Below are positions 46,556-58,717 of a stretch of DNA of 64,000 bases, in pieces. The notes beneath the pieces are model-generated. The model searched no databases. It saw only the letters and a program-made list of their open reading frames with translations, and was not told the DNA's origin. Source of the DNA: an uncultured archaeon (GTDB taxonomy: Archaea > Asgardarchaeota > Lokiarchaeia > Sigyniarchaeales > SOKP01); assembly GCA_964486045.1 (NCBI GenBank), contig CAZALK010000002.1, positions 224,001 to 288,000 of the forward strand, read 5' to 3'. Positions within the stretch are counted from its first letter, which is position 1. Each line of letters begins with the position of its first letter. Made by a program: the position numbers and the translations under genes.

Positions 46556-47365
46556 TTAAGATATTTTATTTTTATTTTCTCTATTTCCTCGTTTTATAAT
46601 TTCTTTAATAAAATAAGTTGCAACCATATTAGCCTTAGCACCTGAACCAAAACCTGCATCATATCCTAGCTCTTTTGCCAATTCATTACTTATTCTTGCT
46701 CCACCACATATTAAAATTACTTTATCACGTATTTCTTCTGCTTCTAATAGTTCTACTAAATTAGTTAAATTCTTTACATGAATATTTTTTTGGGTAACTG
46801 TTTGAGACACCAGTAATACATCTGCTTTTAATTCTATAGCCTTTTTTACAAATTCTTCATTTGTTATCTGGCTTCCGAGATTATAAGTTTCAATCATTTC
46901 AAATCTTTCAAGCCCATAATGACCCGCGAAGCCTTTCATATTCATAATAGCATCAATACCTACTGTATGAGCATCTGTACCTGTTGATGCCCCAAGAATT
47001 ACAATTTTCCGCTTAAGGTTTTTTTTTATGAGTTCATTTATTACTTCAATTGACAAAGTTTCTACCTCAACAGATTCTGCTTGAATTGTTGTATAATCAA
47101 CTGTATGATCTATACTGCCATACACTACAAAAAATGTAAAATCTTTATCTAAGGAGCTATGATAGGCTACAGTTGGATCTTTTAATCCCATCTTTTTTGC
47201 TAACTCTTTAGCTGCTACAACTGCTTTTTCATCATTTTCAATAGGAAGCGTAAAACTTAATTGAACTTTTCCATCGTTCATCGTATCGCCATAAGGTTTA
47301 ATTTTTGTTAAATCGAGATGTTGATCAAATTCCCTTTTTTCAGTCGAATATAATCCCCCACCCAT
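46556..47365 (-). CDS. kamE: Lysine 5,6-aminomutase beta subunit (B12/PLP)
   Basis: KPYGDTMNDGKVQLSFTLP, DAHTVG (DxHxxG), NMKGFAGHYGLER. Confidence 0.95.
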   Translation of the reverse strand: MGGGLYSTEKREFDQHLDLTKIKPYGDTMNDGKVQLSFTLPIENDEKAVVAAKELAKKMGLKDPTVAYHSSLDKDFTFFVVYGSIDHTVDYTTIQAESVEVETLSIEVINELIKKNLKRKIVILGASTGTDAHTVGIDAIMNMKGFAGHYGLERFEMIETYNLGSQITNEEFVKKAIELKADVLLVSQTVTQKNIHVKNLTNLVELLEAEEIRDKVILICGGARISNELAKELGYDAGFGSGAKANMVATYFIKEIIKRGNRENKNKIS

Positions 47366-47366
47366 A

Positions 47367-48947
47367 TTAATTCCCTCCTTTTATTAAATCATTTATCATA
47401 ATTTCCATAAATGGATTATAATATTCTTCCTTTTTTTGAACTACCCCATCCATCCCCTTACCCCCATCTGTAGGTCTTTTAATTCCCGCGAAAATACCTT
47501 TTTCAATAGTCGTAAATAGTCCTTGTTTTTCAATTTCCTTTAGCAAATTGTAAGCATTATTAATGACTTCATTAGCTCTTTTTTCTATTACTCCACCTTT
47601 CTTAAAAATGATTTCTTCACTTATAGATTTCATATTATTAAAAATATATTTAGCGTTTTCTATCGATAGTGCTCTATCAGCCATAAAGGGGGTGTGTATT
47701 GCCTCTGTCAACATACCTAGGAGATGAATCCGTTGGTTAGTCATAATTGTAATCATATTGAATAGTGCATCTTGAATATGGCCCTTGAAGATATTTCCAT
47801 TCATAAATTTTGTCGGAGGCATATATTTAAGGGGAGCGTTAGGAAAAATCTCTCGTGCCATTTGGGCTTGGGCAAGTTCATACAAAAAGCCATTCTCCAA
47901 ATCAGGATTCATTTCAAAAGCATGTCCTAGCCCCATAAGTTCCTCTTTTAACCCTGCGAGTAAGGCAAATTGTTCATTAATAAATTCTGAAGCGAGAACA
48001 GTATGCGCCGCATCAAATGCATCAGCAGTAGTTAAATAGTTATCTTCACCAGTATTAATTGTTATTCCTGCATATGCATTTATCATTCTTGAAAAATACT
48101 GATCAACAATCGTTCTTTTCATATTGATATCACGAAATAAAATACCATAAAGGGCGTCATTAAGCATCATATCAAGCCTTTCAAATGCTCCTATTACAGC
48201 AATTTCAGGCATACACAAGCCAGAGCAATAATTGGTTAACCTGATGTATCGTCCTAATTCTTCACTAACTTTATCCAATGCCGTTCTCATTAATCGAAAG
48301 TTCTCCTGAGTAGCATATGTTCCCCCAAATCCTTCTGTTGTAGCACCATAAGGAACATAATCAAGTAGACTCTGTACAGTAGATCTAATTACAGCGATTA
48401 TATCTGCTCCTTGACGTGCTGCAGCCTGAGCCTGAACAATGTCTTCATAGATATTTCCCGTTGCTACAATAACATAAATAAGAGGTCCATCCTTTTCTCC
48501 ATACTTAGTAATTAATTGATTTCTTTTGCTTTTATTGAAAGAAATTTGCTTCAAATTTTCTTGAGCAATTAATTTTATTTTTGCCTTTATTTCTGAAATA
48601 TCTTCTAAAGGAAGATCTACTAGATCCAATTCACCTCTACTAACTTTTTCAGCAATCTCTTGAGGTGTAAGATTAGTTTGTAATATAGCATTCCCAATAT
48701 ATAGTGCTACTCCAACTCCCAAATTGTTTTTAATGTTATCAATTACAACGTTTGGTAAGGGAACATCAAACTCATCTACACCATCAATACCAAAGAATCT
48801 ACACACAGTCCTCTCAACGGTTGTAGTAGTATATTGATCTATAAATTTTTGAGTATCTAAAGCAATATTTTTTGCTGATTCTCTTGCTTTACTTACAGTT
48901 GAAAAATCTAAATTTAACTTACTTTCTTTTTCCATCATAATTTTCAC
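47367..48947 (-). CDS. kamD: Lysine 5,6-aminomutase alpha subunit
   Basis: ESKLNLDF, YVIVATGNIYED, QSLLDYVPYG, NYCSGLCMPE, INTGEDNY, KYMPPTK. Confidence 0.95.
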   Translation of the reverse strand: MKIMMEKESKLNLDFSTVSKARESAKNIALDTQKFIDQYTTTTVERTVCRFFGIDGVDEFDVPLPNVVIDNIKNNLGVGVALYIGNAILQTNLTPQEIAEKVSRGELDLVDLPLEDISEIKAKIKLIAQENLKQISFNKSKRNQLITKYGEKDGPLIYVIVATGNIYEDIVQAQAAARQGADIIAVIRSTVQSLLDYVPYGATTEGFGGTYATQENFRLMRTALDKVSEELGRYIRLTNYCSGLCMPEIAVIGAFERLDMMLNDALYGILFRDINMKRTIVDQYFSRMINAYAGITINTGEDNYLTTADAFDAAHTVLASEFINEQFALLAGLKEELMGLGHAFEMNPDLENGFLYELAQAQMAREIFPNAPLKYMPPTKFMNGNIFKGHIQDALFNMITIMTNQRIHLLGMLTEAIHTPFMADRALSIENAKYIFNNMKSISEEIIFKKGGVIEKRANEVINNAYNLLKEIEKQGLFTTIEKGIFAGIKRPTDGGKGMDGVVQKKEEYYNPFMEIMINDLIKGGN

Positions 48948-57462: not shown

Positions 57463-57469
57463 AGTTTTT

Positions 57470-58717
57470 TCACTTCATCATTTTCTTACATTCATTTAAA
57501 GATTCATTAATCATTTCTGCTGCATAATCTAAATCATTATCTGTATGTCGATAACAAATATACCCATGATGGAATGGTTGGAGAAATATTCTACGACGGA
57601 TTAATTGTCTGTAAAATTCTTCTCGTAACTTTTTGTAGAGATTATGAGAATCGCGTTTAAAAGTAATATAAGGCATCCAGGGTTCACCTGTGTAAACACA
57701 TGGAACGCCACTATCTTCTATTATATTTTTAACGTTTTTAGCAAATCTATTTCCATTCTCCTTGATTTTATCTAACACATTTTCACGTTCCATTATTGCT
57801 ATTGTTTTAAGAGCTGCAATTTGTGCAAGACTATTCGGGAAAAAAGTAGAGCTAAGAAATACATTTTCAACTAGTTCATCCATAAACTCTTTTTTACCAG
57901 CAAGTACACCAATAGGATAACCATTCGCCATAGCTTTCCCGAAAGTAGCTAAATCGGGGATAATACCCGAAATTTTCTGAAATCCACCCAGATCTACACG
58001 GAACCCCGTCCGTATCTCATCATAAATTAAGAGGGAGCCATAATTATTAGTAATTTCACGAACACCTTCGAGAAATCCATTTTTAGGCATCTCTACTTCA
58101 TGTCCACCGGGATGATTAATCGGTGTAAGAATGATGGCAGCGACATCATTACCATGTTGATTCATAAGATGCTTGATTTGTTCTAAGTTATTATACTCAA
58201 ATTCTATAACATCCTCATATAATTTTTCTGGTATTCCGCCTTTTTGTTCGACACACCAATCATGCCAACCGTGATAACCACATCGCAATATTTTTGTTCT
58301 ATTTGTATAGCTTCTAGCAACACGAATTGCTGAAGTTGTAGCATCAGAACCCATCTTAACAAAAACCATCTTCTCAGCACATGGGATCAATTGTCTTAAT
58401 TTTTTAGCTAATAGATTTTGTACTGGCTGAGTTAGAGACATGCAAAAACCTTTTTCTTTTATTTGGTTAATAACTGCGTTATCAATTTCCTCTTCTCTAT
58501 GACCAATTATTATAGGTCCGTATGCACACAACATATCTAAATATTCATTTCCATCAACATCAATAACCTTTCCCCCTTTAGCTGTCTCGAAAAAAATTGG
58601 ATATTCACCTTCCACGAAATTGTAAGGTCTTCTAATACCCAATATTGCCCCTGGAATTAATCCAAGTGCTTCATTATACAGATTAAAAGTATTGTCAAGT
58701 GATAATCTTTTGGACAT
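57470..58717 (-). CDS. kat: 3-aminobutyryl-CoA aminotransferase (class III PLP)
   Basis: GIRRPYNFV.GEYPIFF, LCAYGPIIIG, GYHGWHDWCVE.KGG, VFLSSTFFPNS, QP.HHGYICYRHT match Cloacimonas Kat as recalled; inside the lysine cluster. Confidence 0.85.
   Translation of the reverse strand: MSKRLSLDNTFNLYNEALGLIPGAILGIRRPYNFVEGEYPIFFETAKGGKVIDVDGNEYLDMLCAYGPIIIGHREEEIDNAVINQIKEKGFCMSLTQPVQNLLAKKLRQLIPCAEKMVFVKMGSDATTSAIRVARSYTNRTKILRCGYHGWHDWCVEQKGGIPEKLYEDVIEFEYNNLEQIKHLMNQHGNDVAAIILTPINHPGGHEVEMPKNGFLEGVREITNNYGSLLIYDEIRTGFRVDLGGFQKISGIIPDLATFGKAMANGYPIGVLAGKKEFMDELVENVFLSSTFFPNSLAQIAALKTIAIMERENVLDKIKENGNRFAKNVKNIIEDSGVPCVYTGEPWMPYITFKRDSHNLYKKLREEFYRQLIRRRIFLQPFHHGYICYRHTDNDLDYAAEMINESLNECKKMMK

Follow-up and report, generated by a model that had tools for sequence, protein, structure and literature searches.

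Clusters of genes for lysine fermentation have been described in two forms, one that carries the lyase gene kal and one in which a gene for an aminotransferase, termed Kat, takes its place. Kat was discovered in bacteria as a "HemL-like" gene occupying the place of kal, and two Kat enzymes have been assayed, CLOAM0809 of Cloacimonas and DIG1_60031 of Bacteroidetes, which are approximately 65% identical to each other (Perret et al. 2011, PMC3149608). In the same report, CLOAM0809 adjoins the thiolase CLOAM0810. For the Asgard isolate MK-D1, Imachi et al. (2020, PMC7015854, Suppl. Table 4) tabulate under "Lysine degradation", together with their expression values, the genes kamA, kamD, kamE, kdd, kce, kal, a CoA-transferase, a hydratase, Bcd and EtfAB. 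Putative Kat and Kal, but not the steps leading up to them, are named in a study of Thaumarchaeota, the paper on Ca. Lokiarchaeum ossiferum is silent on lysine catabolism, and a search of the accessible literature found no paper describing Kat in Asgard archaea. The subject here is a probable Kat-type lysine cluster in a 64,000-nucleotide (nt) stretch of archaeal DNA, hereafter the window, which spans G000:C2:224001-288000 (assembly GCA_964486045.1, contig CAZALK010000002.1) and is assigned to Asgardarchaeota, Lokiarchaeia, Sigyniarchaeales, SOKP01.

Among cultured prokaryotes, Lokiarchaeia stand closest to eukaryotes, and models that derive the eukaryotic cell from syntrophy build on the amino-acid fermentations of this group. 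The window very probably carries a functional-looking, single-copy Kat-type lysine fermentation cluster. This reading is carried by the identities of the genes, their orthology and synteny, their distribution among related genomes, and gene trees. It describes a known pathway variant in a group where only the Kal form has been published; neither the enzyme nor the pathway is of a novel type. The first-pass annotation of this DNA described an archaeal lysine fermentation cluster; lysine fermentation in an archaeon is not in itself new, the Kal-type pathway of MK-D1 having been listed before (Imachi et al. 2020, PMC7015854).

A probable Kat-type lysine cluster in a Lokiarchaeal genome

Genes were called from a listing of open reading frames (ORFs) and from scans with hidden Markov models (Pfam, and NCBIfam with its equivalog cut-offs). 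The seven genes of the pathway found in the window are as follows.

46556-47365, minus strand: kamE; NF052385 392 bits against a cut-off of 280; PF16554 and PF02310 also match
47367-48947, minus strand: kamD; NF052384 912 bits against a cut-off of 600; PF09043 896 bits
48962-49996, minus strand: kamB, lysine 5,6-aminomutase reactivase subunit; NF052386 403 bits against a cut-off of 210
50120-51358, minus strand: kamA, lysine 2,3-aminomutase (radical SAM); TIGR03820 598 bits against a cut-off of 525; PF12544 and PF04055 match
52617-53660, minus strand: kdd, L-erythro-3,5-diaminohexanoate dehydrogenase; NF052381 269 bits against a cut-off of 200
53669-54502, minus strand: kce; NF052387 435 bits against a cut-off of 382; PF05853 347 bits
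57470-58717, minus strand: probable kat, a HemL-like class III pyridoxal phosphate (PLP) aminotransferase of 415 amino acids (aa); PF00202 180 bits; no equivalog cut-off reached

All seven had been read on the minus strand in the first-pass annotation, and all stand where it placed them; kamE, kamD, kamB, kamA, kdd and kce each score above the equivalog cut-off, and the class III aminotransferase forms the 5ʹ end of the cluster. The same annotation found kal missing from the window. This is borne out and extends to the whole 99%-complete genome, in which the best score on NF052388 is 22.9 against a cut-off of 160 bits and nothing matches the KAL portion of the fused model NF052389. KamC, the ATPase of the reactivase, was likewise not found in the genome: the top match to NF052383, a 980-codon open frame on another contig, reaches 210 where the cut-off is 300. 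The two-subunit KamB and KamC reactivase is thus represented by KamB (403 against 210), with KamC under its cut-off. A role of the cluster in producing beta-lysine as an osmolyte (AblA) was considered and rejected, since KamDE, Kdd and Kce are all present.

Identity of the aminotransferase

The best NCBIfam matches of the aminotransferase are HemL models, all scoring far under their cut-offs. On TIGR00713 it reaches 277 bits against a cut-off of 527, and it is not the only hemL candidate of the genome, as a separate, true hemL on the same contig scores 594 bits on this model. The aminotransferase belongs to the fold family of HemL, or glutamate-1-semialdehyde aminomutase (GSAM), and its PLP-binding Lys and Asp align with those of GSAM 3bs8, its best match among solved structures (E 3e-64); no structure of Kat was found among these. 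The first-pass annotation had set a HemL-type enzyme against Kat as mutually exclusive readings. Put in this way the choice is ill-posed, Kat itself having been found as a HemL-like gene. Genes of the Kat type are usually annotated automatically as glutamate-1-semialdehyde aminomutase, an annotation that the Kat reading corrects.

The aminotransferase shares 75-88% identity with Promethearchaeota proteins and, over its full length, 61-68% with those of Cloacimonadota, Bacteroidales, Elusimicrobiota, Bdellovibrionota and further groups. In these bacteria, genes for the homologues adjoin kce, kdd, kamA, kamD and kamE, including those of Bacteroidales proteins (64-67% identity) that head kce-kdd-kam clusters in the order kat-kce-kdd-kamA-kamB-gap-kamD-kamE, the order in the window. 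The homologue in an uncultured Ca. Cloacimonas is 61% identical and its gene directly follows that of an acetyl-CoA acetyltransferase (thiolase); for the Syntrophosphaera homologue, one member of its 90% identity cluster was named 3-aminobutyryl-CoA aminotransferase by the submitter. In a Kat tree rooted on the HemL-like paralogues of the genome, the Kat family stands as a separate clade well apart from these paralogues, and the sampled Asgard proteins form one clade (support 100) within the bacterial Kat radiation. In the window, the gene is linked to kce in one cluster in a genome without kal. Identity, synteny and a near-exclusive distribution with Kal support the aminotransferase as a probable orthologue of Kat (EC 2.6.1.111).

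Distribution in Asgard archaea and the kat/kal slot

The distribution of the cluster was surveyed in 400 genomes of the Asgard phylum, a Kat homologue being counted at 66% identity or more. KamD is present in 85 of these genomes, all in two families of the window's order (74 of 134 and 10 of 14 genomes), Kat homologues in 61, and Kal in 27. Among the 85 KamD-positive genomes, 54 have Kat only, 23 have Kal only, 1 has both and 7 have neither. The Kat route, described as rare in the first-pass annotation, is therefore the commoner of the two within this order. The sole genome with both, G138, is a single contig in which kal and kat-kce lie within 20 kb of kamD (G138:C1:3061050-3080822).

Mapping of sixteen stretches from fourteen Asgard genomes revealed a shared layout, unk526-[kat or kal]-kce-kdd-kamA-kamB-kamD-kamE-(oat), whose two flanking genes in the window are the following.

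59170-60750, minus strand: 526-aa protein, left flank of the kat/kal slot (unk526); no Pfam or NCBIfam match
43978-45240, minus strand: ornithine aminotransferase, right flank (oat); TIGR01885 522 bits against a cut-off of 378

The 526-aa protein is soluble and rich in Lys and Glu, and its gene directly precedes the kat/kal slot whichever of the two an Asgard locus carries; in the Atlas, it matches archaeal hypothetical clusters only (Promethearchaeota, Bathyarchaeota, Thermoproteota). It was considered as a lysine transporter, a role rejected because the protein has no hydrophobic or transmembrane segment in addition to being rich in Lys and Glu. The ornithine aminotransferase gene adjoins kamE in G180, G183 and G192, with a HEPN/nucleotidyltransferase pair (45373-46373) intervening in the window. 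No mapped locus of family f1 has KamC at the kamB-kamD junction, and among the mapped loci a 1.5-kb kamB-kamD gap able to hold it, and filled by a gene of that size, occurs only in family f3, genera g18-g20.

Both types of cluster occur within the window's own genus, with Kal in G183 and G192 and Kat in G180, G189, G217 and the window. The exchange is outlined by comparing the DNA of G241 (Kat) with that of G246 (Kal). Homology is 85% across the left flank, is lost over kat and a DUF5615 gene (2.2 kb) in the one and kal (0.6 kb) in the other, and returns, at 84-93%, with the very first base of kce. The genes kat and kal appear as repeatedly exchanged cassettes in one slot between the 526-aa gene and kce.

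The same survey bears on whether the contig is archaeal at all. The genome (G000; 5.18 Mb in 45 contigs, 99% complete) has an estimated contamination of 7.8%, the pathway is typically bacterial, and the proteins of the core share 60-70% identity with those of Bacteroidales, all of which would fit a bacterial contig binned into an archaeal genome. However, the same cluster and flanks occur in 85 Asgard genomes, including single-contig ones of 3.3, 4.3, 4.4 and 6.04 Mb. The nearest homologues, at 75-92% identity, are all Asgard, and the closest relatives of the aminotransferase, at 71-92% identity, are Promethearchaeota or Lokiarchaeota proteins or LCGC14 marine-sediment entries. Moreover, G+C content is even, at 30-35%, over the whole window, and the contig exceeds 330 kb and also carries the true hemL of the genome. 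The Asgard relatives, the single-contig genomes and the even G+C together make contamination untenable, and its probability is negligible. A check of contig taxonomy called for by the first-pass annotation thus came out archaeal, and assignment of the contig to Lokiarchaeia is supported by its homologues and by the clusters in single-contig genomes.

Origin of the cluster

A tree of concatenated Kce, Kdd, KamA, KamD and KamE (30 rows, 1834 columns; quick search with support from the Shimodaira-Hasegawa-like approximate likelihood-ratio test, SH-aLRT) places all Asgard clusters in one clade (100), sister to Bacteroidota clusters of the Kat type (100). Single-gene trees of Kce and KamD agree with it. 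Within the concatenated tree, Kat and Kal types are interleaved, such that at least 5 changes between them are needed. The sister relationship of the core genes to Bacteroidota clusters of the same gene order supports a probable inter-domain transfer, and with it the first-pass suggestion of horizontal acquisition. The simplest history would be a single transfer of the cluster between domains followed by repeated exchange of kat and kal, with a single acquisition of the core by the common ancestor of one Asgard order. Because the pathway is found across many bacterial phyla and in a single archaeal order, a bacterial donor is favored; as the sampled groups are reciprocally monophyletic, the direction of transfer is inferred only.

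The Kat tree taken on its own differs in its topology. When unconstrained, it places the Asgard clade closer to Bdellovibrionota and Elusimicrobiota than to Bacteroidota. An approximately unbiased (AU) test did not reject a grouping of Asgard with Bacteroidota Kat (p 0.61), and a separate donor for kat than for the core was dropped after this test.

Strength of the Kat assignment

The principal alternative for the aminotransferase is that its substrate is some other beta-amino thioester or beta-amino acid, that it stands among the lysine genes by chance, and that an unrecognised enzyme handles 3-aminobutyryl-CoA. Kat has a broad specificity for beta-aminoacyl-thioesters, and a 60%-identical protein occurs in strain NaphS2, which lacks the pathway (Perret et al., PMC3149608); identity at such a level is thus by itself no proof of substrate. 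Six Asgard genomes also have a Kat homologue with no KamD detected, although four of the six are less than 90% complete (the other two, G256 and G267, are approximately 99-100% complete). An incidental link is further opposed by the position of the gene, which lies next to kce in the majority of archaeal loci and in many bacterial ones, and by the near exclusion of Kat and Kal from one another in KamD-positive genomes (54/23/1) at the same slot. A different substrate is accordingly considered improbable.

Besides the NaphS2 protein, several points weigh against a fully functional Kat-type cluster of bacterial ancestry, which remains the preferred reading. Orthology to the assayed CLOAM0809 runs through positional orthologues, with which the Kat assignment is consistent. 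With KamC missing and the cluster split by a gene on the opposite strand, full 5,6-aminomutase activity is not guaranteed. The trees were all quick searches with SH-aLRT support only, and they took in no bacterial clusters of the Kal type (Fusobacteria, Clostridia), so that the rooting and the donor are provisional. Furthermore, in a second Kat tree, the Kat proteins of two f3 genomes fall outside the main Asgard clade, with weak support. Finally, the enzyme activities, the role of the CoA-transferase discussed below, the end products and the direction of transfer are predictions.

Predicted pathway and electron sinks

If the enzymes act as in bacteria (PMC3149608), KamA would convert L-lysine to beta-lysine, and KamDE, with KamB as a reactivase subunit, would convert beta-lysine to 3,5-diaminohexanoate. 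Kdd would then oxidize and deaminate this intermediate to 3-keto-5-aminohexanoate, from which Kce, using acetyl-CoA, would release acetoacetate and 3-aminobutyryl-CoA. At the step that distinguishes the Kat variant, 3-aminobutyryl-CoA and 2-oxoglutarate would yield acetoacetyl-CoA and glutamate, with the glutamate recycled by glutamate dehydrogenases encoded in the genome. Acetoacetate may be activated either by a family III CoA-transferase encoded next to kat or by one of three AtoAD-type pairs elsewhere, after which thiolases and ADP-forming acyl-CoA synthetases (ACDs) would lead to acetate and ATP. The genome has the genes needed for this lower half, namely, three glutamate dehydrogenase genes, five thiolases, the three AtoAD-type pairs and ACD-like synthetases.

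By the stoichiometry of the bacterial route (PMC3149608), Kat together with glutamate dehydrogenase would produce two reduced pyridine nucleotides per lysine, and these two reducing equivalents could leave as H2 or enter butyrate. The first-pass annotation had lysine going to acetate without butyrate as an electron sink, a claim that the gene content does not sustain: Hbd, crotonases, Bcd-Etf, AtoAD and hydrogenases are all encoded. Specifically, the genome has 5 Hbd-type (3-hydroxyacyl-CoA) dehydrogenases, one of them 2.7 kb past the end of the window, along with 25 enoyl-CoA hydratases, 13 acyl-CoA dehydrogenases and three EtfAB pairs, two of which lie directly beside an acyl-CoA dehydrogenase. 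On contig 3, an acyl-CoA dehydrogenase, a hydratase and an AtoAD-type transferase form a group resembling the MK-D1 set of Imachi et al. It is therefore quite possible, if short of probable, that the cluster is of the Kat type and yet most of the lysine carbon flows to butyrate, following the redox-balanced scheme proposed by Perret et al., rather than solely to acetate with release of H2 or formate. The first-pass view of the physiology would then be wrong, with the gene identities unaffected. The two [NiFe] hydrogenase large subunits also present in the genome speak for the other sink, as does the syntrophic growth of cultured relatives (PMC7015854). With both sets of genes encoded, H2 and butyrate are equally possible on gene content, from which flux is undecidable.

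A further locus in the genome touches the Kce family. At G000:C14:19018-35261, two tandem BKACE (Kce-family) paralogues are 37-39% identical to Kce, with a class III aminotransferase and an acyl-CoA dehydrogenase close by. This locus may represent another beta-keto-acid cleavage pathway.

A CoA-transferase linked to kat

The CoA-transferase gene starts 7 nt downstream of kat.

56275-57462, minus strand: family III (CaiB/BaiF) CoA-transferase, similar to succinate-hydroxymethylglutarate CoA-transferase (SUGCT-like); PF02515 465 bits; no NCBIfam equivalog cut-off met

The solved structure nearest to it is the succinate-hydroxymethylglutarate CoA-transferase 9br6 (E 6e-113). Orthologues are present in 9 of the 154 genomes of the order, within approximately 15 nt downstream of kat in 7 of the 9, and the LCGC14_1041450/1041460 pair has the same adjacency of kat and CoA-transferase. 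Since activation of acetoacetate is the only CoA-transfer step in the pathway, the enzyme is proposed, with low confidence, as a candidate for this step. A broader proposal can be made for Lokiarchaeales, in which kat and kal would be interchangeable cassettes and one sub-lineage, that of the window, would couple kat to a SUGCT-like CoA-transferase that activates the acetoacetate released by Kce. This proposal is speculative and more doubtful than not. If true, the coupling would constitute a third, archaeal version of the lower half of the pathway, independent of AtoAD-type transferases.

Homologues of the CoA-transferase that are 75-77% identical (P0207, P0217, P0219 and P0220) come from sediment metagenomes and are labelled Deltaproteobacteria. 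They reflect either recent sharing between domains or mis-binned contigs.

Interspersed and neighboring genes

The cluster is not contiguous, as five extra genes are interspersed among those of the pathway: the CoA-transferase and the four listed here.

55299-56150, minus strand: luciferase-like (F420/FMN-type) oxidoreductase; PF00296 183 bits; under all NCBIfam cut-offs
54910-55146, minus strand: 78-aa ORF, 3 nt upstream of the DUF5615 gene; no NCBIfam match
54553-54906, minus strand: DUF5615 PIN-like gene; PF18480 54.6 bits
51501-52616, plus strand: reductive-dehalogenase/QueG-like Fe-S protein; TIGR02486 65 bits and TIGR00276 48 bits, both under cut-off; 4Fe-4S motifs

The plus-strand Fe-S gene borders directly on the 3ʹ end of kdd, and 142 nt separate it from the divergently oriented kamA. 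Its position implies at least two transcription units, one from kat to kdd and one from kamA to kamE. In G180, by comparison, kdd and kamA are adjacent. No other mapped Asgard locus has the oxidoreductase or the plus-strand Fe-S gene at these positions, and DUF5615 between kat and kce recurs, among mapped loci, only in G149 and G241. The oxidoreductase, the Fe-S gene and DUF5615 look like passengers, and the 78-aa ORF and DUF5615 are a probable toxin-antitoxin pair. Scans of the 64-kb window for tRNA genes and Rfam families gave no match, and a scan for sigma-70 promoters and terminators, a model ill-suited to archaea, returned fewer sites than in shuffled sequence.

Toxin-antitoxin-like genes are scattered over the window at 5790-6633, 19459-19947, 42502-42909, 45373-46373 and 54553-55146. 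They comprise HepT with a neighboring ORF, two PIN genes, the HEPN and nucleotidyltransferase pair, and DUF5615 with its small partner, and two of these sets lie at junctions of the lysine cluster. The QueG-like gene at 51501-52616 is inserted inside a B12-dependent lysine cluster, and a second reductive-dehalogenase/QueG-like Fe-S protein, with HEAT repeats, is encoded at 62166-63281 on the plus strand (148 bits on QueG against a cut-off of 200).

Beside the lysine cluster are genes for ornithine carbamoyltransferase (41280-42212), carbamate kinase (43007-43915) and the ornithine aminotransferase at 43978-45240. With two M20 peptidases (12211-13458 and 39890-41191), these ornithine genes make up an amino-acid catabolism neighborhood. 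Farther away, the region 21807-26214 holds two-subunit ATP-citrate lyase-like genes (21807-23096 and 23108-24946) followed by an isocitrate/isopropylmalate dehydrogenase. The window also encodes a 2-oxoacid:ferredoxin oxidoreductase (2120-4691), a succinyl-CoA synthetase (9518-11498) and, at 37297-38478 on the plus strand, a TIR-NACHT (STAND-type) protein that is a candidate immune or defence NTPase.

Comparison with known systems

The closest described bacterial system is the Kat variant of 'Candidatus Cloacimonas acidaminovorans' and digester Bacteroidetes (PMC3149608), which likewise has KamA, KamDE, Kdd, Kce and a HemL-like Kat and no kal. The window Kat, at 61-68% identity to bacterial homologues, falls within the approximately 65% spread of the pair assayed by Perret et al. 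(PMC3149608), and the gene order kat-kce-kdd-kamA-kamB-kamD-kamE of Bacteroidales loci matches that of the window. The archaeal cluster differs from this bacterial variant in its Asgard host, in the absence of KamC, in the family III CoA-transferase behind kat, and in being known here from its genes. It is also interrupted by the oxidoreductase, the toxin-antitoxin-like pair and the opposite-strand Fe-S protein.

Among archaea, the nearest system is that of 'Ca. Prometheoarchaeum syntrophicum' MK-D1 (PMC7015854), which belongs to the same order and has the same core of kamA, kamD, kamE, kdd and kce. The CoA-transferase, hydratase, Bcd and EtfAB of MK-D1 also have counterparts in the window's genome. 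However, MK-D1 uses the lyase Kal and keeps a MutS2-like KamC, whereas in the genome described here the Kal slot is taken by Kat, and both Kal and KamC are absent. Within this order, Kat is thus commoner than the published Kal and is swapped with it at a single slot, which adds glutamate-linked nitrogen handling to the metabolic picture of the group.

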